Shown: positions 4,037-46,067, counted from the first letter of the stretch. The stretch is DNA of 51,192 nt from a virus (IMGVR_UViG_2627854098_000004), one strand, 5' to 3'. Program-made: numbers and translations. Notes: a model not told the origin generated them from the sequence alone.

Positions 4037-6096
4037 ACGACCTCTTTTAATTGCCTGTCATTTAATTCTTTATGCCATATGCGGAAATTGCGAATATGGC
4101 CAAACAGATGTCGTTCTCCAGTATTCGTCTGCCCTCCAAATCGGATATTTTTATCAGCGGTCACGCCATTATATTCACAATAAACTTCATTAACCGCTTT
4201 ACCATTTGTCACCACATGAAAGTGACCATCAGCTTTTGCAATACATCCAAATGTGGTTTTCTCTGCAAATACATCTGTCGCTGCGCTATTAACATACGAG
4301 CCTGAAGGGTTTGACAGACTCATATATAACTTACCACTACCTCTGTTGACTGCTGCAATTGCTGATTGCCCGGTATTGGCTGCTGCTATATCCCACACGC
4401 GGGGTGCGGCGTTTGGTGCAATATCCCAGTTTTTATGAATCTCAAGTAAAAAAGTAAATGGTAACTTATAAAGATTATTTCTGGTGGGGATACTAACCAA
4501 ATCACTGGCTCTTGTCGTTGCGCTGCCTCCTGAAATAATAAATGATGATACACACGGCCCATTCTCTACTTGTGGGGTGGCAAGATAAATATAGTCACCA
4601 GATACTGTTGCCCCACCCTTCTCAGGAGAATACTGTATCTGAGAGCCTATTTTTAACTCACCATCAATTGCCTGAATCGTTGCCTCTGCAAAAATCCAGC
4701 CCGTGGTCTTATCCTTCCTGACTCGTGCCGTAATTCTGCCGGCAGCACCACCTGTCATATTAATTTCAAGCGTTTGCGTATCAATGTACGCATCGCCAAG
4801 AAAAGTTGTTGCACTTCCGTCATATTTATCAAACCGGATTCGCAACCTTACCTGCAGTTCTGTTTTAAAGCGACATGAGGTTGTCACGTATTTATTATCG
4901 CCTGAGACATCAACTGACTTTGTTGCAGCAATTGATGCCATATTAATAGCCGAAGTTTGCCCAACCAGAGAATCGTTGCAGACAAACTTTCCATAAGTAA
5001 AACCAAAACTATCCGTCCCGGTTTCGGGCACATCCATGTTTGATGACTTCCCCCAGCTGGCTGGACTTTCCGAATTGAGCATGTAGTTCGTTCTTTGTCC
5101 CTCAATAAGCAGGCCATCACACTCAAATCGCGGCTCATTAATTTCCGCCGTTTTCAGTTCGCCAGATTTGTTGATATATGTTGCCGTTGATGCGCGACTG
5201 AAATTAACCTGTTTATCACTGGCGACCTGAACCACATCGTCACCAATAGCTATTTTTTTATAGCCCGGAGAAAAACCCGCAATCATATCCAGTGAATCGT
5301 TAAACGGTATCCACACATCAGGCAGCGGCGGCACTATATTCGCATAGGGCTCTGCAGTCACTTCCGCTGCGGCTTCTGCGCGGTCTGCCGCCTTTTCAGC
5401 TCGTGTCGCTGCCGACAGAGCCTCATCCTTTTTCTGCCCGGCCTTTGTTGCGTCTGCTGCAGCCTCCCGCGCTTTTGTGGTGGCGACTCCGGCATTTTCA
5501 GCGGCTGACTCTGCATTACGGCGGGAAGCCTCTTCACTGTCTGCGGAGGCTTCTTCTGACGCACGGGCATTTGTCTCTGAACGTTCTGCCGCTGTTGCTG
5601 CGTTTTGTGCGGCTGTTTTTGAAGAAGCTGCCGCTTTCGCGCTGTTACCTGCATTCGTCTCTGATGTTTTCGCCGCGTTCCTGGACGATGCCGCTGCTGT
5701 TTCTGATTTCTTTGCTGCCGCTGCGCTCTGAGAGGCGGCTTCAGCGTTGCGTGCCACATCCTCCACCATTTCCTGAAAACGGCGCAATGCCTCCGGCATG
5801 ACATCATCTTCCGTCATGGCACCGAGAAAATCATTCAGCGTCCCCGGACTGGAACCTTCATAGACGGTAATGGTCCCAACATGTGATGGCTGAGAACCCT
5901 CAATCCACAGGATGACGCTGTACTGACCATACTCAACGTCCATACTGTAACGCCCGGCTTCATCAGGATTTTCAGAGGCCACCGTGTTCACCAGTACCGT
6001 GGTGCTGTTACGCTTTGCCTTCAGTTGAATAGTGCAGTTCTGTATTGGTTTTCCCGCACCATCTTTCAGCACACCTGAGATTTTTACTGCTGCCAT
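4033..6096 (-). CDS. stf: side tail fibre protein (Stf-like; lambda-type N-terminus, Ala/Ser-rich low-complexity shaft, distinct C-terminal domain)
   Basis: ORF 4033..6102; likely start ATG 6096-6094 (MAAVKISGVLKDG, as in lambda Stf) with GGAG upstream. Confidence 0.8.
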   Translation of the reverse strand: MAAVKISGVLKDGAGKPIQNCTIQLKAKRNSTTVLVNTVASENPDEAGRYSMDVEYGQYSVILWIEGSQPSHVGTITVYEGSSPGTLNDFLGAMTEDDVMPEALRRFQEMVEDVARNAEAASQSAAAAKKSETAAASSRNAAKTSETNAGNSAKAAASSKTAAQNAATAAERSETNARASEEASADSEEASRRNAESAAENAGVATTKAREAAADATKAGQKKDEALSAATRAEKAADRAEAAAEVTAEPYANIVPPLPDVWIPFNDSLDMIAGFSPGYKKIAIGDDVVQVASDKQVNFSRASTATYINKSGELKTAEINEPRFECDGLLIEGQRTNYMLNSESPASWGKSSNMDVPETGTDSFGFTYGKFVCNDSLVGQTSAINMASIAATKSVDVSGDNKYVTTSCRFKTELQVRLRIRFDKYDGSATTFLGDAYIDTQTLEINMTGGAAGRITARVRKDKTTGWIFAEATIQAIDGELKIGSQIQYSPEKGGATVSGDYIYLATPQVENGPCVSSFIISGGSATTRASDLVSIPTRNNLYKLPFTFLLEIHKNWDIAPNAAPRVWDIAAANTGQSAIAAVNRGSGKLYMSLSNPSGSYVNSAATDVFAEKTTFGCIAKADGHFHVVTNGKAVNEVYCEYNGVTADKNIRFGGQTNTGERHLFGHIRNFRIWHKELNDRQLKEVV

Positions 6097-35552: not shown

Positions 35553-36076
35553 GCAGCCCTCCTGACGCCCTGCCCGATCGCCATCAATGCCGCTTTGGAT
35601 ACGGTAGTAAACATCCGCCGAGGACTGATGAACGGTCGCCAAATCAGCAGCATGGAGCCTTTGCTGTTTCCCTTCTTCTCCAGCCCTGTCGATGGTTCGA
35701 TAAAATTAATCCGTCCATCAGTGATAATACGAACTTCGTCAACACTCTCCAGAGCCTTGCTGAACCATCCGACAGACATATCCTCTGGCACAAGCATCAC
35801 TACCGTCTGTCGCTGTTGTATACACTGCTCAGCGGCTTTTTCCACCCACGGCCTGATATTGCTGTACGGTGGGTTATTCCAGATTGCACCGTGGCTTACC
35901 CACTCAGAATTGAGCGCGTCGTCGTCCTCAGTTAGCCAGTGAGCGCACAGAGCATTTTTGTCGCTCGCTGCCGAATCCAGCCAGAATCCAAACTCAATAT
36001 CCAGTGCATCAAAAAGCCAAAGCGGCGTTTGCCAGCAGTCCTTGTCGTGTGCTGGCGTATTTGATTTGATAGTCAT
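35549..36076 (-). CDS. phage DNA N6-adenine methyltransferase
   Basis: ORF 35549..36136; start ATG 36076 in an ATGA overlap with ninB; methyltransferase motif IV NPPY (IWNNPPYS). Confidence 0.75.
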
Positions 36077-36513
36077 GCAGCCCGATCTCCCCATCGCGCT
36101 TTCCATTCGAGAGCCAGTCGCGCTTCGTCTGACCACTTAACGCCACGCTCTGTACCGAATGCCTGTATAAGCTCTAATAGCTCCGCAAATTCGCTTACAC
36201 GCATCCTGCTGGTTGACTGGCCTATTACCACAAAGCCATTCCCGGCAAGGTTAGGAACAACATCCTGCTGCTTTAATGCTGCGGTAAACACACACTTCCA
36301 GCTTTCTGCATCCAGCCAGCGACCATGCCATTCAACCTGACGAGAGACGTCACCTAAGCAGGCCCATAGCTTCCTGTTTTGGTCTAAGCTGCGGTTGCGT
36401 TCCTGAATGGTTACTACGATTGGTTTGGTTGGGTCTGGAAGGATTTGCTGTACTGCGTGAATAGCGTTTTGCTGATGTGCCGGAGATCGAATTTCAAAGG
36501 TTAGTTTTTTCAT
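36073..36513 (-). CDS. ninB: NinB (Orf-family recombination mediator)
   Basis: ORF 36073..36531; start MKKLTFEI at 36513; near-identical to lambda NinB. Confidence 0.85.
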   Translation of the reverse strand: MKKLTFEIRSPAHQQNAIHAVQQILPDPTKPIVVTIQERNRSLDQNRKLWACLGDVSRQVEWHGRWLDAESWKCVFTAALKQQDVVPNLAGNGFVVIGQSTSRMRVSEFAELLELIQAFGTERGVKWSDEARLALEWKARWGDRAA

Positions 36514-36530
36514 GACTTCCCTCTCCCCCA

Positions 36531-36561
36531 AATAAAAAGGCCTGCGATTACCTGCAGGCCT
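36531..36561 (-). terminator. intrinsic terminator between ren and ninB (tR2-like position)
   Basis: On the - strand AGGCCTGC-AGGTAATC-GCAGGCCT followed by TTTTTATTT. Confidence 0.6.
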
Positions 36562-36586
36562 GTTATTAGCTCAGTGATGTAGATGG

Positions 36587-36877
36587 TCATCTTTTAACTC
36601 CATATACCGCCAATATCCGTTTCATCGTGGCACTCTGGCGACACTCCTTAAAAATCAGGTTCGTGCTCATCTTTCCTTCCCGTTCTTCCTTGGTAGCAAA
36701 CCGGTAATACACCGTTCGCCAGACCTTACCTTCGATAACCAGAAGACCTGCCCGTGCCATTTTAGCCGCGGCCTGATTTATGCTGGTTACTGTTGCGCCT
36801 GTTAGCGCGGCAACGTCCGGCGCACAGAAGCTATTATGCGTCCCCAGGTAATGAATAATTGCCTCTTTGCCCGTCAT
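36587..36877 (-). CDS. ren: Ren
   Basis: 96 aa; near-identical to lambda Ren. Confidence 0.85.
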   Translation of the reverse strand: MTGKEAIIHYLGTHNSFCAPDVAALTGATVTSINQAAAKMARAGLLVIEGKVWRTVYYRFATKEEREGKMSTNLIFKECRQSATMKRILAVYGVKR

Positions 36878-37575
36878 ACACTTGCTCCTTTCAGTCCTAA
36901 CTTAGCTTTAATTTCTGCGATCTTCGCCAGCGCCTGAACACGATTTAGAGGTCTGCCGCCCATGACAGGAAGTTGTTTTACTGGTTCAGGTATCGTCTCA
37001 CCACGGTTAATTCGCGCTGTCATACAGGTCAGTTCATCGGCAGCCTTGCGTCGTAATTCCGCGTCAGTCAGCGCATTGGCCCGCATGTTCTGGTACAGGT
37101 TGGTAACCAGCCAGTAGTGCGCGTTCGATTTCCACGGATAAGACTCTGCATCCGGATACAGGCCTCGCTTCCGGCAATACTCGTAAACCATATCAACCAG
37201 CTCGCTGACGTTTGGCAGTCCGGCGATAACGGATGCTTCTTCCCGGCACCATGCAACAAACTGCCCGGGTGATGGCAGAAATGGTCGATTCTGCCGACGG
37301 GCTACGCGCATTCCTGCGTTAACCTGTTCCATTGTGGTGATCCCGTTTTCCCGGAAAGCCAGAACCCACTGGCGGCGGATTTCGTTCAGTTCGTTCTGGT
37401 CACGGTTAGCCAGACTCGCCGGGAAAGTTGCCAGTAACTGGCTGAACACACCGTTGATGATCTGCGCTACCTGCTGTACCTGCGGCTTTTCGTCGTACTG
37501 TTCCGGCATGTTGTTGGCGATCCGACGCATCTGCTCACGGTCAAAATTAACCATCTGTGCGGCGATGTTTTTCAT
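36874..37575 (-). CDS. P: replication protein P (DnaB loader)
   Basis: 233 aa; near-identical to lambda P; ATGA overlap with the O stop. Confidence 0.9.
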   Translation of the reverse strand: MKNIAAQMVNFDREQMRRIANNMPEQYDEKPQVQQVAQIINGVFSQLLATFPASLANRDQNELNEIRRQWVLAFRENGITTMEQVNAGMRVARRQNRPFLPSPGQFVAWCREEASVIAGLPNVSELVDMVYEYCRKRGLYPDAESYPWKSNAHYWLVTNLYQNMRANALTDAELRRKAADELTCMTARINRGETIPEPVKQLPVMGGRPLNRVQALAKIAEIKAKLGLKGASV

Positions 37576-38470
37576 AAATCCACCCCGTAAATCCAGTCAG
37601 TGTTTGTCAGGTCGAGTTTTGGTTTGCAGGCTGTCACACCTGCCTGTTGCTTGTTACGGTTGATTTCGAGCTGGGTCCACTTGTCGCGGAGTTTGGCCGG
37701 GCTCAGCACGTTACCGGACCAGAAGTTGTCCTGGCATGCCCAGCGGAACAGTACACACATGTCGCGATGGTTACGTCCGTCACGTTCACGCATCAGGCGG
37801 ATATCGTTAGCCCACCCTGCAAAATTCGGTTTTCTGGCTGATGGCGCGATGGTCTTCACCATGTCAAACATCCATTCTGCGGCGGTCAGGTCTTCTGCTG
37901 TCCCCCACTTGCTGCCGCTCTGAATTGCAGCATCCGGTTTCACCACAGAAAGGTCGTTTTCTGGCTGGTCAGAGGATTCGCCAGAATTCTCTGACGAATA
38001 ATCTTTTCTTTTTCTTTTGTAATAGTGTCTTTTGTGTCCCCCTGTTTTGAGGGATAGCAATCCCCCAATTTGAGGGATGTTTTATCCCTCGTTTTAGGGG
38101 ATTTTCCCTCGTTTTGAGGGATACACCATTCTGAGATGTTTTTATTTGGTCCAAACATGCCGCCTTGCTGCTTGATAATATTCATTCTGACGAGTTCTAA
38201 CTTGGCTTCATTGCACCGTTTGACGGGTAACTTTGTAATCTCGCTAAGTTGAGAATCGGTGATTCTGTCCATTGGTTTATTCCATCCATAGGTTTTACGC
38301 AGAATGGCAAGCAGCACTTTAAACTGTCGCTTGGTCAGATCTGCGCCTGAATAAGCCTCAAGCAGCATATTTGATAGTCTGGCGTAACCATCATCGAGAT
38401 CTGCCACATTACGCTCCTGTTTGGCAAAGTTACCTCTGCAGAAGTTGAGTATTTTTGCTGTATTTGTCAT
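37572..38470 (-). pseudogene. O: replication initiator O, split by a 1-nt deletion in the AT-rich ori segment
   Basis: ORFs 37940..38470 (O N-terminus) and 37572..38060 (O C-terminus) overlap; total 899 nt against 900 expected; the frame change maps to the plus-strand T5 run 38009-38013. Confidence 0.75.
38041..38120. repeat. ori iterons (four roughly 19-bp O-binding repeats) inside the O gene
   Basis: On the - strand four tandem copies of TCCCTCAAAACGAGGGA-like repeats, followed by an A/T-rich segment at 37990-38040. Confidence 0.85.
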
Positions 38471-38502
38471 AATGACTCCTGTGGATTGATCCAGTAATGA
38501 CC

Positions 38503-38799
38503 TCAGAATTCCATCTGGATTTGTTCAGAACGCTCGGTTGCCGCCGGGCGTTTTTTATTGGTGAGTCCATCAAGCGCATACTTAAAAGCCCTGCTAATCG
38601 GACTGATGTCTGATGCCATTCCGAAAGCACACAAGACCGAAGCAATAAATCTCCAGTCCGTTCTGCTTATCTTCGATTCATGACAGCCAATCATCTTTGC
38701 CAGACCGCGCTGGGTAATAGCTGACAGATTGATAAGTAAATCTGTTTCTGCGCGATCAACGTCACGCTGTGATAGTTTGCTGTAACTTGTTCTTTCCAT
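38503..38799 (-). CDS. cII: CII transcriptional activator (lambda-type C-terminus, divergent N-terminal part)
   Basis: 98 aa ending LTNKKRPAATERSEQIQMEF as in lambda CII; positioned between nutR and O. Confidence 0.75.
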   Translation of the reverse strand: MERTSYSKLSQRDVDRAETDLLINLSAITQRGLAKMIGCHESKISRTDWRFIASVLCAFGMASDISPISRAFKYALDGLTNKKRPAATERSEQIQMEF

Positions 38800-38884
38800 T
38801 TCTTAAGATTTCCAATAGTGAATAGTTAGTTGAAAGGTATGCGTGGAAACGCATATGGCCTTAGTTGGTCAGATATCTTGGAAC

Positions 38885-38930
38885 TCGCTTTTCAGCGACG
38901 TAGGACGAATGTCCGTTGTTACAAAGAGCG
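38885..38930 (-). promoter_or_regulatory. nutR: boxA-like CGCTCTTTG, an intervening hairpin, and boxB-like hairpin TCGCU-GAAA-AGCGA
   Basis: Immediately downstream of the cro stop on the - strand; same element order as the nutL candidate, with paired base changes in both stems. Confidence 0.55.
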
Positions 38931-38940
38931 GATCCGCTTA

Positions 38941-39156
38941 TTAAGCGGCTTTGTGTTCCGGCGGGAACACGTCATCAAGACTGACTTTTGCGCCTAACTT
39001 GTTTAGGCACGCAACAAGAGCACGGCATGTTTTAAGGTCTGGGAAGCGACGACCAGATTCCCAATGTCCGATAGCTCCCTGTGTGCATCCAACTGCCTTA
39101 GCAAGTGTTGTTTGAGAGATATTCAGTGACTCTCGATATTTTCGTAGGTTGCTCAT
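38941..39156 (-). CDS. cro: Cro-like repressor (XRE-family helix-turn-helix, 71 aa)
   Basis: ORF 38941..39327; start ATG 39156 with RBS GGAGGG; HTH LNISQTTLAKAVGCTQGAIGHWESG; divergent from cI across the operator region. Confidence 0.8.
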   Translation of the reverse strand: MSNLRKYRESLNISQTTLAKAVGCTQGAIGHWESGRRFPDLKTCRALVACLNKLGAKVSLDDVFPPEHKAA

Positions 39157-39267
39157 ATGCCCTCCATAGTAAACACGAATAAAAAAATACAATATGTACT
39201 TTGCGAATACAAGTAAAAATACACATTGTGCATGGATGGTTCCAGTACAGAGCGTAATAATAAGGAC
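39157..39267. promoter_or_regulatory. OR operator / pR / pRM region
   Basis: Divergent cI/cro spacer with repeated ATACA-containing quasi-palindromes; candidate pR on the - strand has -35 TTGTAT and -10 TATTTT (plus-strand 39184-39212); the element AAAGTACATAT is shared with the pL region. Confidence 0.5.
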
Positions 39268-39927
39268 ATGAAAATGAAATGGTATGAACTGGCTAGATCC
39301 AGAATGAAAGAGCTCGGCATAACTCAAGAGAAGTTAGCCGAAGAGCTAGGTATGACGCAGGGTGGGATTGGACACTGGTTGCGCGGATCTCGTCATCCAT
39401 CTCTTAGTGATATTGGTGTGGTGTTTAAATACCTTGGTATTGATAACATATCATTCAACCACGACGGGACATTTTCACCTGTTGGCGAATACTCATCGGC
39501 CCCAGTTAAAAAACAATATGAGTACCCTGTTTTTTCTCATGTTCAGGCTGGGATGTTCTCTCCAGAACTCAGAACCTTTACCAAAGGCGATGCGGAGAGA
39601 TTGGTAAGCACAACCAAAAAAGCCAGTGACTCTGCATTCTGGCTTGAGGTTGAAGGTAACTCAATGACCGCACCAACAGGTTCCAAACCCAGCTTTCCTG
39701 ACGGGATGTTAATTCTGGTTGACCCTGAGCAAGCTGTTGAGCCCGGCGATTTCTGCATAGCCAGACTTGGTGGTGATGAATTTACCTTCAAGAAACTGAT
39801 CAGGGATAGCGGTCAGGTGTTTCTACAGCCACTAAACCCACAATACCCAATGATCCCATGCAATGAGAGTTGTTCCGTTGTGGGGAAAGTTATCGCCAGC
39901 CAATGGCCTGAAGAGACGTTTGGGTGA
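39268..39927 (+). CDS. cI: CI repressor (lambda-identical C-terminal cleavage/dimerisation domain, different N-terminal DNA-binding domain)
   Basis: ORF 39226..39927; C-terminal about 130 aa match lambda CI as I recall it; N-terminal HTH differs, implying a non-lambda immunity; start could be 39232, 39268 or 39274. Confidence 0.85.
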
Positions 39928-39966
39928 TGAAACCACTTTTATCTACAATTTACAGGGCGGTAAACA

Positions 39967-40524
39967 TTGGCAAAAATAGATGATTATCAGCCAAGCCAAG
40001 TAGAAGTTGATAAAGTACTTTATTGTAAAAAAATAGTTAACTTTTCTGGCGTTAAATGGAAACAGAAACCAAGTCGCTCTGATATGTGGCTACAAGCCCA
40101 TATCATCCCCTTGGATGAGGATTGTATACCTATACAAGGGCTAAAGTTTGAACTGAAATGGAAACCAGATCAGGATTCAGAACCTGATGACCCGATTTCT
40201 TACCCTAAAATAAATATTATTGCTTTCTATCATAACAAGAGGGTTTTCGCGGTAGATACCTATCACTTTGACAAACACACGAATAGTTACAAGGTCGATC
40301 ATCCGAAGTACCAAGATATCATTTACGGTGCTCACTACCATGTATACTATGAAGAAGCTGGATACTATAGTGATAGAATAGCGTTTCCAATCGAAGATGA
40401 CATAAACCCAGATGACCTGGTAGGGTATTGGAATTACTTCTGTAAACATCTGAACATAACTTACTCTGGGAGAATACCTTTACCGCTTGAAGATGAGTCG
40501 GGGCAAATGGGGTTTGGAATATGA
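39967..40524 (+). CDS. hypothetical protein A of the cI-downstream cassette (185 aa, possible TTG start)
   Basis: Begins 39 nt after the cI stop on the same strand; AT-rich; no transmembrane segment or motif I recognise. Confidence 0.6.
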   Translation: MAKIDDYQPSQVEVDKVLYCKKIVNFSGVKWKQKPSRSDMWLQAHIIPLDEDCIPIQGLKFELKWKPDQDSEPDDPISYPKINIIAFYHNKRVFAVDTYHFDKHTNSYKVDHPKYQDIIYGAHYHVYYEEAGYYSDRIAFPIEDDINPDDLVGYWNYFCKHLNITYSGRIPLPLEDESGQMGFGI

Positions 40525-41273
40525 TGTGCTCAACAGTGATCTCACAACTAGGTTTCGAATGCCATCCAATAGGCAAGACCTTGAGAATTATCAGTCCATT
40601 CACTTACTGTGATGATGGAGAGCATGTCGGTGCCTTTATCCGTGAAGTCAATGGTAGGTATTTAGTTAGTGACAGATGCGATGCCTTAATGAATATGGAG
40701 GCAAGAGGGATCTCGCTTACCAAAAAACGACTTGATGAGATACGACAATTACTGCTTAAAGAAGGCGCAGAACTCAATGCTCGAGGAGAAATCATTGCTT
40801 GGGCAACAGAAAAGGATGTCGGTGCGATTACATCGAACATAATTAGAGCTGGTATACTCGCATCAACTTTGTCGTTAGACTGGTATCAGCCAGTTCAAGC
40901 TGAAAAGTTTGAAAGTATGGTTATTGATTATCTATATCACACAGAGCTTAGAGACGCACTTTCTCTTCGTGAAAACGTATATGGCTTGAGTGGACATCAA
41001 ATTACCGTCCCTGTAACAATAAAAACCGACATACCTAAATACGTTTTTACATCAAGCGTGAAACACGGAGGAAGCTGGAATAGTGCTTACTCATTGCTTG
41101 GGAAACTAATTGATCTTAAAGCTTCAAGTGAGGAGTATAACAACAGATTTGTTGTTATAGACAGCGAAGCAATTGGTGATCAAATGCAACAACTCTCCTT
41201 ACTCTTCCATGAATCAAGCCAAGTTCTACCATTCTCCAAAAGAGAGACTTGGGTTAAGAGACTTGCAGCATAA
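40521..41273 (+). CDS. hypothetical protein B of the cI-downstream cassette (250 aa)
   Basis: ATG overlaps the stop of gene A (ATGA at 40521-40524); AT-rich; no recognisable motif; followed by a terminator. Confidence 0.65.
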   Translation: MMCSTVISQLGFECHPIGKTLRIISPFTYCDDGEHVGAFIREVNGRYLVSDRCDALMNMEARGISLTKKRLDEIRQLLLKEGAELNARGEIIAWATEKDVGAITSNIIRAGILASTLSLDWYQPVQAEKFESMVIDYLYHTELRDALSLRENVYGLSGHQITVPVTIKTDIPKYVFTSSVKHGGSWNSAYSLLGKLIDLKASSEEYNNRFVVIDSEAIGDQMQQLSLLFHESSQVLPFSKRETWVKRLAA

Positions 41274-41277
41274 TACA

Positions 41278-41304
41278 ACCCGGCCTCAGCGCCGGGTTTT
41301 CTTT
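41278..41304 (+). terminator. intrinsic terminator ending the cI-cassette operon
   Basis: CCCGGC-CTCAGC-GCCGGG followed by TTTTCTTT. Confidence 0.65.
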
Positions 41305-41492
41305 GCCTCACGTTCGCCCACCTAAAAACACATAACCAATTATATTTATTGAAAAATAAATAGATGCAACCCACTAAACCACGCAATTCTGATCTCTCCT
41401 TACATCGCCGAGGCAATACATCCACGCTAAAAAACAACACTATTAAATACAAAGCGTTATAAAAAACCACGCCAACTTACAACAAATTGTAT

Positions 41493-41520
41493 TGATCTTG
41501 TAAAGTACATATCGTACTAT
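41493..41520 (+). promoter_or_regulatory. candidate pL promoter with overlapping operator
   Basis: -35 TTGATC, 16-bp spacer, -10 TACTAT; the spacer contains AAAGTACATATCGTACT, the same quasi-palindrome class as in OR. Confidence 0.45.
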
Positions 41521-41566
41521 TTAACCGTCAGCAGGACGCTGGAAGCCAAATGGAACAGACTGGCAG

Positions 41567-41611
41567 GCTCTTTAAACAACGTCGACTCTCGACTACGTGG
41601 CTGAAAAGCCA
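41567..41611 (+). promoter_or_regulatory. nutL: boxA-like GCTCTTTA, intervening hairpin GTCGA-CTC-TCGAC, boxB-like hairpin GGCU-GAAA-AGCC
   Basis: Between the pL candidate and the N start; architecture parallels nutR. Confidence 0.55.
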
Positions 41612-41709
41612 GATCACCCAACCACATAAGCTGTGGGATGCAATGCCGAAGCAACCGTCTCAGGAGGAGCTTCGAGATTGCATCGCCAAAGTTTATTCGG
41701 GAGGAATCC

Positions 41710-41798
41710 ATGTCCAGAAAAACAGAATTTAAAGGCACCGCAGCTTCTCGCCGTAGAGCTCGTCGCGCAAATCTGCAAAGTCAGGAGGCGATCAGCTC
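41710..41798 (+). pseudogene. N: N antiterminator, 5' fragment (codons 1-29), interrupted by IS66
   Basis: ATG 41710 with RBS GGAGGAA; arginine-rich N-terminus MSRKTEFKGTAASRRRARRA; reading frame continues at 44249 after the IS and one copy of the target duplication. Confidence 0.55.
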
Positions 41799-41835
41799 GT
41801 AAGCGTGCAGCAAGAACCGTATTGACGGGGATGTG

Positions 41836-43374
41836 TTATTCAGTCGGCAGTGCTACGCGCCAGGGGAGCAGTTCGCCGACCCGGTTTATCGGCCAGTCGG
41901 CTATGACGTCAAGGACATAGCGGAGGTAGCTTTCTGGCTCCACTCCGTTCAGTTTGCACGTCCCGATCAGGCTGTACAGCAGCGCTCCCCGCTCTCCTCC
42001 ATGATCCGAACCGAAGAACAGGTAGTTTTTGCGGCCCAGACTGACCATCCGCAACGCATTTTCAGCGATGTTATTGTCCGCCTCAGCCCAGCCATCATCT
42101 GCATAGTACGTCAGCGCCGGCCACTGGTTCAGGGCGTATGCGAACGCTTTCGCCAGTTCTGAGTGTCGCGACAGGGTTTTCATCTTTTCACGCAGCCAGC
42201 TTTCCAGGGATTTCAGCAGCGGTTTCGTTTTCAACTGACGTTCGGCAAGGCGCTGCTCCGCCGTCATTCCCCTTATCTCTGCCTCGATGGCGTACAGTTC
42301 GCCGATCCGTTTCAGCGCTTCCTCCGTCAGGGCTGACGGGGTGCGAACGTGCACATCGTGGATTTTACGGCGGGCGTGAGCCCAACAGGCGGCTTCCGTT
42401 ATCCGGCCATCCCGGTACAGCTCGTTGAACCCGGCGTATGCATCCGCCTGCAGTACACCACTGAACCCCGCAAGATGGGTCTGCGGATGGATGCCTTTTC
42501 TGTCCGGGCTGTAAGCGAACCACACCGCCGGCGCCAGCGTTGACCCGGCGTTACGGTCGTCACGAACGTAGGTCCATAACCGCCCGGTCTTCGTTTTCTT
42601 ATTGCCTGGCAACAGCACCGGGACAGGCGTGTCATCAGCATGGAGCTTACCGTCAGTCAGCACATAGCCATGAAGCGCCTCTTCCAGCGGAGACAGCAGC
42701 CGGCAGCATGCATCCACCCAGCCCGACAGCAGTGAACGGCTCAGCTCCACACCTTGCCGGCCGTATATTTCTGACTGGCGATACAGCGGGGTGTGCTCTG
42801 CATACTTCGAGGTCAGCACGCGGGCCAGCAGCCCCGGTCCGGCGATACCCCGCTCGATGGGCCGCGAAGGTGCAGGTGCCTGCACGATGGCATCGCACTG
42901 AGTACAGGCATGTTTTTCCCGTACCGTCCGGATAACCCGGAAGGCGCTACGCATCAACTCCAGCTGTTCGGCGGTATCCTCGCCCAGATAGCTCAGTGAA
43001 CCGCCGCAGTTCGGGCAGCACGGCGCCGCAGGCAACAGTCGCTTTTCGTCACGGGGTAGTGATTCAGGGAACGGCTTACGGGTGCGGGTCTGACGCAACG
43101 GACGCTGTACTGCCGGGTCATACACCCTACCAGTCAGCGTATCGCTCTCTTTCTGAAGCCGGTTCAGATCGGCTTCCATTTGTGCGATACGGCGGGAGAC
43201 TTTTTCGGAACGACTGCCGAAGTTCATCCGGCGGAGTTTATCCAGCTGCGCCTGCAGATGGTCTATTTCGCGCTCCCGGTTGCTCAGCTTTTCCTGCAGG
43301 GCGTGGATCAGCGCTTCCTGTTCGGCCAGGCGCTGTTTCAGCAGGAAGATGTCGTCAGAAGAGATGTCGTTCAT
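41836..43374 (-). CDS. IS66-family transposase TnpC
   Basis: 512 aa; IS66 transposase with zinc-ribbon CxxC motifs. Confidence 0.85.
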
Positions 43375-43423
43375 AAGCCCGTATTTTACCGGGCTTATTC
43401 TGTGACAACCAGGATAAAGAGAT

Positions 43424-43771
43424 TTACAGCATGGTCAGGGAGGTCAGCAGCCGCTTAGGCTGTCGCCAGTCGATACCTTCCAGCAGCATCGCCAGCTGCG
43501 CCTGTGTAAGGAACACTTTGCCATCACGGGCTGACGGCCAGGCGAAGCGCCCACGCTCCAGCCGTTTGGTCAGGAGGCACAGTCCGTCACCGGTGGACCA
43601 CAGCAGTTTAACCTGACTGCCGCTGCGGCCCCGGAAAATGAAAACATGGCCGGACATGGGATCGTCTTTCAGCGCCGTCTGTACTTTCGCAGCCAGGCCG
43701 TTGAAGCCATTTCTCATATCAGTGATACCGGCAACCAGCCAAATTTTGGTCCCGGAAGGTAACGGGATCAT
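43424..43771 (-). CDS. IS66-family TnpB
   Basis: 115 aa; [27 protein letters not shown]. Confidence 0.85.
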
Positions 43772-44169
43772 CGCTTCAGTTCCTGTATCAGCAGAGTCAG
43801 GAGCTTTTCGCTGACATTGCCATTGAAGCGGAGCGTCCCGTGCCGGAACGTTACCTCACAGCTGATACTGAGGGTTTCCGGGTCCTCTGCGAGCGATTCT
43901 GGCTGTTCGGCAGCTGCATCGAGAGTCACAGGAAGTAGCTGGGGGCTCTCTGAAGAAGGTAATAGCAGCTTTCCCTCGCGCCATTGTTGTCGCCATTTGA
44001 ACAACAGATTGGCGTTAATGCCATTTTCAAGAGCAAGTTTTGAGATGGATATCCCGGGTTCACAGGAGGCAGCAACGAGCTGCTGTTTAAATTCGGGAGG
44101 ATAATTAGGGCAGCCTTTTCGCCTGCCGGGAGTCACATTTTTCTGCATATCTGACACTTTGGTTCCCAC
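43768..44169 (-). CDS. IS66-family TnpA
   Basis: 133 aa; ATGA-type overlap with tnpB. Confidence 0.8.
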   Translation of the reverse strand: MGTKVSDMQKNVTPGRRKGCPNYPPEFKQQLVAASCEPGISISKLALENGINANLLFKWRQQWREGKLLLPSSESPQLLPVTLDAAAEQPESLAEDPETLSISCEVTFRHGTLRFNGNVSEKLLTLLIQELKR

Positions 44170-44240
44170 TACTTATTTGGTGGACACCACTTTGTCTAAT
44201 TCGTCAGATTCTGACCAGACGGTTCAGGCTGTACGCTTAC

Positions 44241-44432
44241 ATCAGCTCCGACAAGCTACACAGGCCAACCCCTTCACGAGTGGTCTTGCAATGCAAGCTC
44301 AAACCAGCAATGAGAGCAGAAGTGATAACTCTGACAACGTTGACCAGAAAATATGAAGGTTCAACTTGTCTTCCGAACGTAGCTCTTTACGCGGCAGGCT
44401 ACCGGAAATCAAAACAACTGACGGCGAGATGA
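44241..44432 (+). pseudogene. N: N antiterminator, 3' fragment
   Basis: In-frame continuation of the 41710 ORF once the IS and one target-duplication copy are removed; stop TGA at 44430-44432; reconstructed N is 90 aa. Confidence 0.5.
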
Positions 44433-44448
44433 TAAATTCATTTGCTAA

Positions 44449-45030
44449 TTACTTGTTTTTGCCATGCTTATCCTGAGCGATAAGTTCATCCATAAGGCTG
44501 TCTGCCTTCCCGGCAAACCTAATGTAGCACTCATGTCTATAGCTTTCAGGGATAACGAAACGGTCGGTATCAGGATATCCAACAGCAGGAGGCCTTCGAA
44601 CGAGGAGTCCTTTTTTGAGCAATGAAATTGATTCATGAGCGCCCTTTTCCGTTTGTAGCTGGTTATTAGCGGCTACAGCGAATGCCAAATACGCTCTTTC
44701 TCCAAGAGTTAACGAATCAAACAAATCTTGCACATATTTTTCTTCTTTAGATTTGCGCTTCTGAGCAGCGAATACCTCAATTCTTTCAGTCACAGCGTGA
44801 TAAGCGGAATTAACAACGCCGTTAAGCACATAGCTAACGCAAAACAACAGGATGTAATACATCCAGTAATGAGGAAGGATTTCTGGATTATGCAGGTTTA
44901 TCCATTCTTTTACGCTTACCGGCATAACAATAATCAATATGATCAGGATGATTAGCATATGAATCAACTGTTTAAGTGTCATTCCTTGCAGGAAAAAATG
45001 CATTAGTTCCTGCCACCATGAGTTGTTCAT
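44449..45030 (-). CDS. sieB: superinfection exclusion protein SieB-like membrane protein
   Basis: 193 aa; N-terminal hydrophobic segment LIHMLIILIILIIVMPV; located between N and ral as sieB is in lambda. Confidence 0.65.
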   Translation of the reverse strand: MNNSWWQELMHFFLQGMTLKQLIHMLIILIILIIVMPVSVKEWINLHNPEILPHYWMYYILLFCVSYVLNGVVNSAYHAVTERIEVFAAQKRKSKEEKYVQDLFDSLTLGERAYLAFAVAANNQLQTEKGAHESISLLKKGLLVRRPPAVGYPDTDRFVIPESYRHECYIRFAGKADSLMDELIAQDKHGKNK

Positions 45031-45243
45031 CGGCGTTTCTCTTTTGCTCTCTGTAGGGGTGAATAGAGTTTATCCGATTTCTCGTTGTAGGGGTACACGA
45101 GAACCACCGAGCCTGATGTGGTTAAAAGACAGGCACAATCTTTACTACCGCAATCCACTATTTAAGGTGATATATGGAAGAAGAATTTGAAGAGTTCGAA
45201 GAGCATCCTCAAGATGTGATGGAACAATACCAGGACTATCCGT

Positions 45244-45444
45244 ATGACTACGACTATTGATACAAATCAATGGTGTGGACAATTCAAACGATGCAATGGA
45301 TGCAAGCTGCAATCGGAATGCATGGTTAAGCCTGAAGAAATGTTTCCTGTAATGGAAGATGGGAAATATGTCGATAAATGGGCAATACGAACGACGGCAA
45401 TGATTGCCAGAGAACTTGGTAAACAGAACAACAAAGCTGCCTGA
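45244..45444 (+). CDS. ral: Ral restriction-alleviation protein
   Basis: 66 aa; near-identical to lambda Ral. Confidence 0.85.
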   Translation: MTTTIDTNQWCGQFKRCNGCKLQSECMVKPEEMFPVMEDGKYVDKWAIRTTAMIARELGKQNNKAA

Positions 45445-45580
45445 TAGTGGCCTTTATTTTTGGCATAAATAACAGAATAAACACTGCACTGTGTATTCAT
45501 TCCAACGAGTGAATACACGGAGCAATGTCGCTCGTAACTAAACAGGAGCCGACTTGTTCTGATTATTGGAAATCTTCTTT

Positions 45581-45606
45581 GCCCTCCAGTGTGAGGGCGA
45601 TTTTTT
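45581..45606 (+). terminator. intrinsic terminator between ral and ea10 (tL-type)
   Basis: GCCCTC-CAGTGT-GAGGGC followed by GATTTTTTAT. Confidence 0.55.
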
Positions 45607-45626
45607 ATCTATGAGGATATGAATAG

Positions 45627-45995
45627 ATGTCAAACATCAAAAAATACATCATTGATTACGACTGGAAAGCATCAATAGAAATTGAAATTGACCATGACGT
45701 AATGACAGAGGAAAAACTTCACCAGATTAATAATTTCTGGTCAGACTCTGAATACCGACTCAATAAACACGGCTCTGTATTAAATGCTGTATTAATCATG
45801 CTGGCGCAACATGCTCTGCTTATAGCAATTTCAAGCGACTTAAATGCATATGGTGTTGTGTGTGAGTTCGACTGGAATGATGGAAATGGTCAGGAAGGAT
45901 GGCCTCCAATGGATGGTAGTGAAGGAATAAGAATTACCGATATCGATACATCAGGAATATTTGATTCAGATGATATGACTATCAAGGCCGCCTGA
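45627..45995 (+). CDS. ea10: Ea10-like protein
   Basis: 122 aa; matches lambda Ea10 as I recall it. Confidence 0.7.
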   Translation: MSNIKKYIIDYDWKASIEIEIDHDVMTEEKLHQINNFWSDSEYRLNKHGSVLNAVLIMLAQHALLIAISSDLNAYGVVCEFDWNDGNGQEGWPPMDGSEGIRITDIDTSGIFDSDDMTIKAA

Positions 45996-46067
45996 GCGCG
46001 GCGTTACCGCATACCAATTACGCTTCACTCGAGGCGTTTTTCGTTATGTATAAATAAGGAGCACACC

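Follow-up and report, generated by a model that had tools for sequence, protein, structure and literature searches.

The viral DNA IMGVR_UViG_2627854098_000004, a stretch of 51,192 nucleotides that we refer to as the window, carries two N-utilization (nut) sites, nutL and nutR, in which boxA and the boxB hairpin are separated by an additional small hairpin. This spacer hairpin is a real structure and has been conserved in evolution: in about 60 distinct homologous sites, it and the boxB hairpin alike keep their pairing through changes on both sides of the stem, which argues that they are genuine RNA structures. We consider it highly probable that the sites belong, as nutL and nutR, to a lambdoid prophage of the H-19B/VT2-Sakai type, at which phage N would promote antitermination and the spacer hairpin would serve as a "reducer" of distance. 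An earlier note had drawn attention to the two sites, and its sequences and coordinates proved exact in every detail. Its identification of them as nutL and nutR also holds, as nutL lies between the promoter pL and the N gene and nutR lies between cro and cII. The parts of the two sites are as follows.

41567-41574, + strand: nutL boxA GCTCTTTA (RNA GCUCUUUA), close to the rrn consensus; read in the sequence and conserved in most relatives
41575-41580, + strand: linear 5' part of the nutL spacer, AACAAC; ACAA[CT] is nearly invariant in the family
41581-41593, + strand: nutL spacer hairpin GUCGA-CUC-UCGAC; folds alone at -4.7 kcal/mol
41594-41597, + strand: nutL linker between the hairpins, UACG; present in every nutL found, though not a search condition
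41598-41611, + strand: nutL boxB UGGCU-GAAA-AGCCA, a 5-bp stem with a GNRA tetraloop; folds alone at -6.3 kcal/mol (z = -2.8)
38930-38922, - strand: nutR boxA CGCTCTTTG (RNA CGCUCUUUG); begins 10 nt past the cro stop codon
38921-38915, - strand: linear 5' part of the nutR spacer, TAACAAC; read in the sequence
38914-38903, - strand: nutR spacer hairpin GGAC-AUUC-GUCC; folds alone at -5.0 kcal/mol (z = -3.9)
38902-38899, - strand: nutR linker UACG; recovered in relatives without imposing UACG on the search
38898-38885, - strand: nutR boxB UCGCU-GAAA-AGCGA; folds alone at -5.7 kcal/mol (z = -4.6)

Conservation and covariation of the hairpins

Both sites share the order boxA, ACAAC, small hairpin, UACG and a 5-bp boxB with a GAAA loop, and at both the boxA is near the consensus (C/U)GCUCUU(U)A, as expected of lambdoid nut sites. 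Consensus boxA sequences have been given as UGCUCUUUA for rrn and CGCUCUUA for lambda (PMC2724277); the boxA of nutL, GCUCUUUA, agrees with the former and not with the latter. The ACAA[CT] that follows it likewise resembles the rrn spacer, which reads ACAAU after boxA (PMC2724277, Table 1). A search with the pattern GCTCTTT-N{15,25}-TACGTSGCTGAAAAGCSA gave two matches in the window, namely nutL and nutR, with 0.00 expected from 100 shuffles, and TACG plus boxB alone, with up to 3 mismatches, again recovered only these two (0.17 expected). The covariance model described below gave them scores of 64.3 and 50.5 bits; no other match in the window exceeded 8.5 bits.

The pL-nutL-N and cro-nutR-cII stretches are 100 % identical in the coliphages 2G7b, ev017, ev207 and PhiR11_1, and 97-98 % identical in VT2-Sakai, the Stx1 and Stx2 (Shiga toxin) converting phages, Nil2, 1717 and 2851. 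In the VT2-Sakai record (AP000422.1), the features "putative N-utilization leftward" and "rightward" map to window positions 41566-41606 and 38930-38891, and the N protein is described as "similar to bacteriophage 933W L0080 and H-19B N". These annotations end within the boxB loop and leave the sub-elements unmarked. VT2-Sakai and related phages have a nutL identical to that of the window and a nutR that differs by 1-2 nt, outside the core. A homologous nutR is also annotated in the records of 933W, mEp234 and Salmonella phage g341c, and the sites are conserved across hundreds of phage and prophage records. Because H-19B and related phages are known to have the same layout and existing records annotate the sites, those of near-identical phages included, the novelty that the earlier note implied for this layout is not supported; structures and layout alike are those of the H-19B/VT2-Sakai type.

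For the covariation analysis, loci were gathered using cII, the window N, the H-19B N and two diverged N proteins, and single phage records were added. A scan of one genome per species yielded 11 loci, and diversity was therefore drawn from IMG/VR and a phage collection. The arms of the spacer hairpin were set independently of pairing, as the 5 nt after an AA[CT] anchor and the 5 nt before TACG. Among 14 distinct combinations defined in this way, 96.4 % of cells were paired, compared with 27-41 % when the partners were slid by 1-3 columns; two-sided changes affected 4/5 pairs of the spacer hairpin and 3/5 pairs of boxB, and the covariation score was reached by 0/500 shuffles. As the boxB arms in this set were chosen for pairing, only their pair types count as evidence. 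A covariance model based on 15 sites recovered 137 sites from 100 diverse loci, and in the resulting alignment, which is biased towards the model's own structure, 100 % of cells paired across 57 distinct sequences (29-49 % when slid), with 7/10 pairs changing on both sides. A plain MAFFT alignment of 64 unique sites placed the H-19B nutL and the pentaloop rows out of register, and no pair count was taken from it. The boxB hairpins of the window have 5-bp stems and GAAA loops, and in relatives 3 to 4 of the 5 stem pairs are changed on both sides.

The variants themselves show how the pairing is kept. Among close relatives, the loop of the nutL spacer hairpin varies (CTC, ACTC, ACAC, ATC, GCAC) and its stem never does, and in the wider family the interval between ACAA[CT] and TACG holds the stems GTCGA/TCGAC, GGTGA/TCACC, GGCGA/TTGCC, GATTC/GAATC and GAGC/GCTC. 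At nutR the spacer stem is GGAC/GTCC, once GGGC/GTCC and once GGC/GCC, around the loops AUUC, AUGAA, AUGAC, GUAAC, AUAA, AUUCA, AACCU, ACGAA and GUCCU. The nutL boxB stem occurs as AGGCU/AGCCU, UGGCC/GGCCA and CGGCU/AGCCG in relatives, and its loop also as GCAA. The earlier note had read real RNA hairpins from stems that differ between the two sites yet remain paired, and had proposed covariation across relatives as the check; the compensatory changes bear out that reading, and the loss of the hairpins in relatives that would have spoken against it is not what we observe. These comparative data provide statistical support for a structured nut spacer that is independent of mutagenesis.

The same data bear on the idea that the likeness of nutL and nutR is a leftover of duplication or a product of chance and that the hairpins have no role. 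Hairpins of 4-5 bp are common in any sequence, and 61-nt pieces around the sites are not significantly stable, both of which would suit such a view. However, the composite motif is found twice against an expectation of zero and is conserved in hundreds of records, the stems carry two-sided compensatory changes, and RNase probing has been published for a hairpin identical to that of nutR. The idea is already contradicted by the comparative data, and we give it next to no weight.

A further alternative is that the hairpins act on DNA or on the opposite strand, as protein-binding palindromes or antisense terminators. The GTCGAC within the nutL repeat is a SalI-type palindrome, a terminator scan flags this repeat on the - strand (41593..41581, GTCGAGAGTCGAC, then GTTGTTTAAA), and in the antisense direction the hairpin is followed by GUUGUU; the conserved ACAAC has GUUGU as its antisense reading at nutL and nutR alike. 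The G-U pairs in GGGC/GUCC and GGCGA/UUGCC, however, are paired on the transcribed strand only, pointing to RNA rather than to a DNA palindrome; on the other strand they become A-C mismatches and are not palindromic in DNA. The stems are also short (4-5 bp, about -5 kcal/mol) with no U run directly after them, and the scan found 6 terminator-like sites in total against 3.0 ± 1.9 in shuffles. As the nutL stem sequence is not conserved between variants, it offers no common DNA-binding site. Given the G-U pairs, the weakness of the stems and their variable sequence, we rejected the spacer repeat as an intrinsic terminator or DNA palindrome, and we regard action on DNA or the opposite strand as very improbable.

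In isolation, all four small hairpins adopt the folds given above (-4.7 to -6.3 kcal/mol, z = -1.9 to -4.6). In the 156-nt pL leader, the minimum-energy fold includes both nutL hairpins, and none of 200 shuffles was as stable (z = -3.26). This fold (-54.6 kcal/mol) is dominated by an imperfect long hairpin, GGGAUGCAAUGCCGAAG … CUUCGAGAUUGCAUCGCC, at 41634-41692 (+) in the N leader, whose position recalls that of the RNase III-sensitive structure in the lambda N leader and which ends near the N ribosome-binding site. A third small hairpin, CCACA-TAAGC-TGTGG, lies past the nutL boxB at 41622-41636 (+). Its counterpart in relatives, 5-10 nt after the nutL boxB, is CCAAAG(C)-loop-(G)CTTTGG with a run rich in G and T after it (GGGATG or GGGGTGTGGTG), and the window version differs by one A-T to C-G swap. 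This hairpin is present after nutL in almost all relatives (e.g., L180, L267 and L374), P22-type loci included, and none was seen after nutR; it may be the counterpart of the boxC region. A scan of positions 36000-46000 against Rfam (E <= 10) returned chance matches only, with no nut, boxB or related family, no family at threshold and nothing over the nut sites on the right strand, and Rfam appears to hold no matching nut or boxB model.

Relation to H-19B and classes of boxB loop

In the H-19B record AF034975, nutR reads CGCTATTTT CACAAT GGAC-ATTC-GTCC TACG TCGCT-GACAA-AGCGA and nutL reads …ATATACAAC GATTC-GAATAT-GAATC TACG GCGCT-GACAA-AGCGC. These sites have in common with those of the window the order boxA, ACAA[CU], spacer hairpin, UACG and 5-bp boxB, and the UACG linker occurs at all four. 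From ACAA to the boxB stem (UCGCU/AGCGA) the two nutR sites are the same apart from the loop, and the GGAC-AUUC-GUCC hairpin is identical in the nutR of H-19B, 933W, mEp234 and the window. These sequences identify the hairpin that separates boxA from boxB as the structured spacer known from H-19B (Neely and Friedman, Mol Microbiol 2000, 38:1074, pmid 11123680). The two N proteins belong to the same Pfam family and share the first half of the arginine-rich motif, M(S/T)R(K/R)T.FKG…SRRR. They differ in length (127 aa in H-19B and 90 aa in the window, with ~41 % identity) and in how the motif continues, which is RLKAKALANGV in H-19B, with a 7-residue insertion in the alignment, and RRANLQS in the window. 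The boxB loop is likewise GACAA (5 nt) in H-19B and GAAA (4 nt) in the window, and the H-19B nutL has a GAUUC/GAAUC stem and no consensus boxA, whereas nutL of the window has GUCGA/UCGAC and a consensus boxA. The window thus shows the structured spacer and homology to the H-19B sites, but in place of the GACAA pentaloop and the motif …RRRERLKAKALAN… it has GAAA and …RRRARRANLQS…, which places its sites in a predicted sister specificity class and not in the H-19B class proper.

The N proteins of lambda and P22 recognise pentaloops (PMC9074901), in which four bases adopt a GNRA-like fold (PMC10908868). The boxB of the window is a true tetraloop, and loop variation within its class stays within GNRA (GAAA or GCAA). 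Loop classes were never mixed within a locus: 76 loci had GACAA at both sites and 47 had GNRA at both. The motifs and loops were distributed as follows.

N motif …RRRxRRAxLQ…: boxB loop GAAA or GCAA (GAAA with 24 distinct motifs, GCAA with 3, of which 2 also occur with GAAA)
N motif …RRRERLK…: boxB loop GACAA
Backbone like that of Sakai, motif RRAxLQ: loops of the GNRA type (the window)
Backbone like that of Sakai, motif RLKSAAISR: GACAA in nutL and nutR alike (L277)
C-terminal domain like that of H-19B and GATTC/GAATC in the nutL spacer, motif RLKAKALAN: GACAA or C-GUCAA-C (H-19B, Oslo and 146851_sal5)
C-terminal domain like that of H-19B and GATTC/GAATC in the nutL spacer, motif RRAALQN: GAAA in nutL and nutR alike (SF6 and Enterobacter phage MII_001)

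In all four combinations of backbone and motif, the loop class appears to follow the second half of the arginine-rich motif. As there are few pentaloop-class lineages, this rule rests on few independent events and is suggestive rather than statistical. It is possible, and we propose it only tentatively, that a GNRA-tetraloop boxB together with the short motif …RRRxRRAxLQ… forms a distinct specificity class, orthogonal to the GACAA/…RRRERLK… pairing of H-19B and P22. The switch between the two would then lie in the second half of the arginine-rich helix, as a 7-residue insertion or deletion in the alignment. In lambda boxB, an extruded loop base is needed for NusA to join the complex. As no loop base would be extruded in the tetraloop, assembly with NusA would have to proceed otherwise in the GNRA class than in lambda, and it is intriguing to consider that the invariant UACG and the spacer hairpin might supply the NusA contact instead. 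The lambda and P22 N-boxB pairs are used in engineering (PMC10908868), and the peptide partner of a natural true-tetraloop class could provide another orthogonal RNA-tethering pair.

This tetraloop class and its link to the short N motif are modestly novel. They are drawn from comparison and were partly foreseen in 2008, when "a novel BoxB specificity" was predicted for the N protein of epsilon34, whose first 27 residues are unlike those of other N proteins (Villafane et al. 2008, PMC2629481); that genome paper offers a prediction without experiment. We found no experimental work on the GNRA-tetraloop N/boxB class in the literature. The nutR of Salmonella phage g341c reads GGAC-AUUC-GUCC UACG UCGCU-GAAA-AGCGA, as in the window, and its record marks exactly TCGCT-GAAA-AGCGA as "Putative NutR (similar to NutR Epsilon34)", although its boxA is degenerate, unlike that of the window. 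The epsilon34 N differs from that of the window in having a long H-19B-like C-terminal part (~120 aa; SF6 is an example).

Other known systems share some of these parts and lack others. The P22 gene 24 protein, seen in ST104, belongs to the same N family as the window N and has a conserved C-terminus, …CLPNVALYAAGYRKSKQLTAR, and P22-type sites resemble those of the window in their consensus boxA and 5-bp boxB; the P22-type nutL boxB, GCGCU-GACAA-AGCGC, is that of H-19B nutL. Unlike in the window, their spacer is linear (9-11 nt) without a hairpin or UACG, their loop is a pentaloop and their arginine-rich motif is GNAKTRRHERRRKLAIERD. Lambda has the same order of boxA, spacer and boxB downstream of pL and pR, but its spacer is linear (8-9 nt), its loop is the pentaloop GAAAA or GAAGA (PMC2724277, PMC9074901) and its boxA is CGCUCUUA against GCUCUUUA in the window. 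PMC10908868 and the title of Legault et al. 1998 indicate that boxB presents a GNRA-type fold to the arginine-rich peptide. Lambda N was absent among the homologues found for the window N. The middle hairpin is absent from both lambda (PMC2724277) and P22-type sites, and the remark in the earlier note that it is foreign to the classical lambda nut site is correct.

A third N/boxB class was found in IMG/VR loci (L326, L328-L333, L355, L357 and L358), with an N that begins MANIVYGKSLNPVGKDNAKSRRNARRAEEAIKARE and a CGAGAAC boxB loop. Its boxB hairpins, GCCAC-CGAGAAC-GUGGC at nutR (near 1430-1768) and GUGC-CGAGAAC-GCAC at nutL (near 4714-4869), are like the P22 nutR boxB, ACCGC-CGACAAC-GCGGU. Both nut sites of this class keep boxA-ACAAC-hairpin-UACG, followed by four extra nucleotides (GAAG), and the spacer is thus an exchangeable module not tied to one boxB; the module has been exchanged among at least three boxB/N classes. 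In other IMG/VR loci (L335, L339 and L344-L346, about 4830-4890) a lambda-like N (MTMNAQEKRRAARAEKQSAWKQANPL…) accompanies the boxB GCGCU-GAAAA-AGCGC, and a hairpin, GGGAC-(9-10 nt)-GUCCC, lies upstream of boxA and not between boxA and boxB. A supposed new type of nutR ("class 3") upstream of some cII genes was rejected, as it is the P22-type nutR. This site, CGCTCTTTA TCAATCTGC ACCGC-CGACAAC-GCGGT, precedes cII genes that are 96-97 % identical (L033, L042-L044, L058, L059 and others). The presence of a P22-type instead of a hairpin nutR before near-identical cII genes shows a recombination joint between nutR and cII.

Role of the spacer hairpin

N-dependent antitermination governs early gene expression in Stx phages. 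By analogy with lambda, P22 and H-19B, RNA polymerase starting from pL or pR would transcribe nutL or nutR, and the single-stranded boxA with ACAAC would serve as the landing site of NusB-NusE (S10) and NusA. The short spacer hairpin would come next in the nascent RNA, followed by the UACG linker, and the GNRA tetraloop of boxB would be bound by the arginine-rich N-terminus of phage N. N would then bridge to NusA and RNA polymerase, allowing read-through of terminators (tR1 and those of the pL operon). In this scheme the spacer hairpin most likely is a passive reducer of distance that folds away 12-15 nt and leaves 9-11 unpaired. The scheme builds on the sites and their position, their conservation and covariation, the link between loop class and N motif, and the constant effective spacing. 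Among 29 variant sites in which boxA can be recognised, the hairpin takes up 12-15 nt of a total spacer of 22-25 nt, and what stays unpaired, on the ACAAC side and in UACG together, amounts to 9-11 nt and most often 10. In the P22-type ST104, which lacks the hairpin, boxB follows the end of GCTCTTTA after a linear spacer of 11 nt at nutL and 9 nt at nutR, and the lambda spacers are 8-9 nt (PMC2724277, Table 1). A constant unpaired spacer of 9-11 nt, as in P22 and lambda, fits a distance-reducing role.

Experiments on the spacer have been made in H-19B. Neely and Friedman, in 2000, reportedly studied the structure of the H-19B nut spacer and described dyad symmetries absent from other nut sites. 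Changing one arm is said to inactivate the site and compensating changes to restore it, and deletion of the dyad reportedly had little effect, so that the stem-loop was called a "reducer" that brings the flanking elements together. Neither specific nucleotides nor the dyad itself are said to be required in H-19B, and boxA and NusB are reportedly dispensable there. No open paper that we found uses "reducer" in this sense for H-19B, or mentions H-19B together with "dyad symmetry". RNase probing of H-19B nutR, whose hairpin is identical to that of the window, has shown that the spacer is protected by Rho alone and also by N with NusA/NusG, that the binding region of NusA and Rho is common, and that boxB is likewise protected by N with NusA/NusG (Muteeb et al. 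2012, PMC3526286).

The alternative that we take most seriously is that the spacer hairpin and UACG form a specific recognition element, through a NusA contact, a second N contact or the loading of Rho (rut) at nutR, where the element would set the balance between termination and antitermination at tR1. The near invariance of GGAC/GUCC and UACG across phages with diverged loops, boxA flanks and N proteins leaves room for a contact with NusA, or with Rho at an overlapping rut, and the module is kept with three different boxB/N classes. In addition, Rho and NusA share a binding region in the H-19B nutR spacer (PMC3526286), and the lambda spacer is bound sequence-specifically by NusA (PMC2724277). 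At nutL, however, the stems differ freely (GUCGA, GGUGA, GGCGA, GAUUC, GAGC) and the loops are hypervariable, which is the signature of structure alone, and nutL keeps its hairpin without an overlapping Rho-dependent terminator (PMC3526286). We keep the specific contact as the main rival, although we consider it unlikely.

Several observations nonetheless weigh against the passive reducer and the N mechanism as we have set them out. At nutR, the GGAC/GUCC stem and UACG hardly vary, whereas the loop occurs in at least nine forms, and at nutL the stems vary freely; a passive spacer leaves the invariance at nutR unexplained. It also leaves unexplained why a hairpin is retained whose deletion is reportedly tolerated, and the reducer experiments themselves are said to concern H-19B, which is another variant than that of the window. 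Relative to shuffles, the 61-nt pieces show no significant stability (z = -1.1 and -1.6), and boxA is paired in their minimum-energy fold with the 3' half of boxB. On the pentaloop side, the link between loop and motif involves three distinct GACAA-associated motifs and an Oslo-type motif. The presumed function of the N/boxB pair in the window is based on homology and comparative data, and the sites, standing next to a disrupted N, may be non-functional relics. With respect to the alternative fold, the first boxA base does fit the boxB stem at both sites of the window (GGCU/AGCC and CGCU/AGCG), but in relatives it varies independently of the stem (UGCU, AGCU or CGCU with UGGCU/AGCCA), and we rejected pairing of boxA with the 3' half of boxB as a conserved structure.

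Immunity region and state of the prophage

The open reading frames (ORFs) and Pfam matches give the order cII - nutR - cro - pR/pRM - cI - two ORFs - pL - nutL - N. The nut sites are therefore placed as in lambdoid phages, in the early transcripts, downstream of pL and pR and before the first terminators are reached. Promoter, operator and tR1 features were carried over from VT2-Sakai AP000422.1.

38503-38799, - strand: cII (Pfam Phage_CII)
38830-38855, - strand: tR1 region, putative first terminator for N-modified polymerase (VT2-Sakai "putative rho dependent terminator for pR transcript", L002:726-751)
38941-39156, - strand: cro (helix-turn-helix)
39184-39212, - strand: pR, predicted by homology only to drive cro, nutR and cII (VT2-Sakai "putative major rightward promoter", L002:369-397)
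39226-39927, + strand: CI-type repressor (helix-turn-helix and Peptidase_S24)
41492-41520, + strand: pL, TTGATC-17 nt-TACTAT, predicted by homology only to drive nutL and N (VT2-Sakai "putative major leftward promoter", L001:416-444)
41710-41802, + strand: 5' fragment of N, a 30-aa peptide MSRKTEFKGTAASRRRARRANLQSQEAISS with its stop codon inside the insertion; arginine-rich RNA-binding motif only
41799-44240, - strand: IS66-family element of 2442 bp with tnpA, tnpB and tnpC (Pfam DDE_Tnp_IS66, TnpB_IS66 and HTH_Tnp_1)
44241-44432, + strand: 3' fragment of N, …ISSDKLHRPTPSRVVLQCKLKPAMRAEV…YAAGYRKSKQLTAR, then a stop; read in the sequence

The N gene is interrupted after codon 30 by the IS66-family element, which ends in GTAAGCG…CGCTTAC and is flanked by an 8-bp target duplication, ATCAGCTC, at 41791-41798 and 44241-44248. 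In VT2-Sakai, related Stx phages, 2G7b, ev017, ev207 and PhiR11_1, N is intact. Rejoining the two fragments gives a protein of 90 aa that is one residue off the intact 90-aa N of PhiR11_1 and matches the Pfam family N_peptide (PF25694) with E = 1.5e-32; a cognate N with the N-terminal motif SRRRARRANLQ is thus encoded downstream of nutL, albeit interrupted here. No solved structure matched the window N by sequence. The junction of N with IS66 was found in 3/5426 complete E. coli genomes, all avian (APEC IMT5155, DE17 and VTB96815v). With N split in this way, the nut sites could act only with a compatible N from another prophage and are probably idle in the window. It is speculation that boxB binding could persist in the 30-aa N fragment and that the fragment might interfere with phages of its class that enter the cell.

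The O replication gene, at 37572-38470 (-), also appears to be frameshifted, as residues 1-169 of H-19B O match one frame and residues 131-312 another, and the two frames overlap in iteron-like repeats (ATCCCTCAAA…GGGGGA). The broken N together with the frameshifted O suggests a defective prophage, and the window would thus hold the ordinary early-control region of a VT2-Sakai-like lambdoid prophage in crippled form. Between cI and pL, two ORFs at 39967-40524 and 40521-41273 (+) occupy the position of lambda rexA/rexB. Their Pfam matches are weak or uninformative only (DUF6978 below threshold, and DUF1828), and they might constitute an exclusion or defence cassette.

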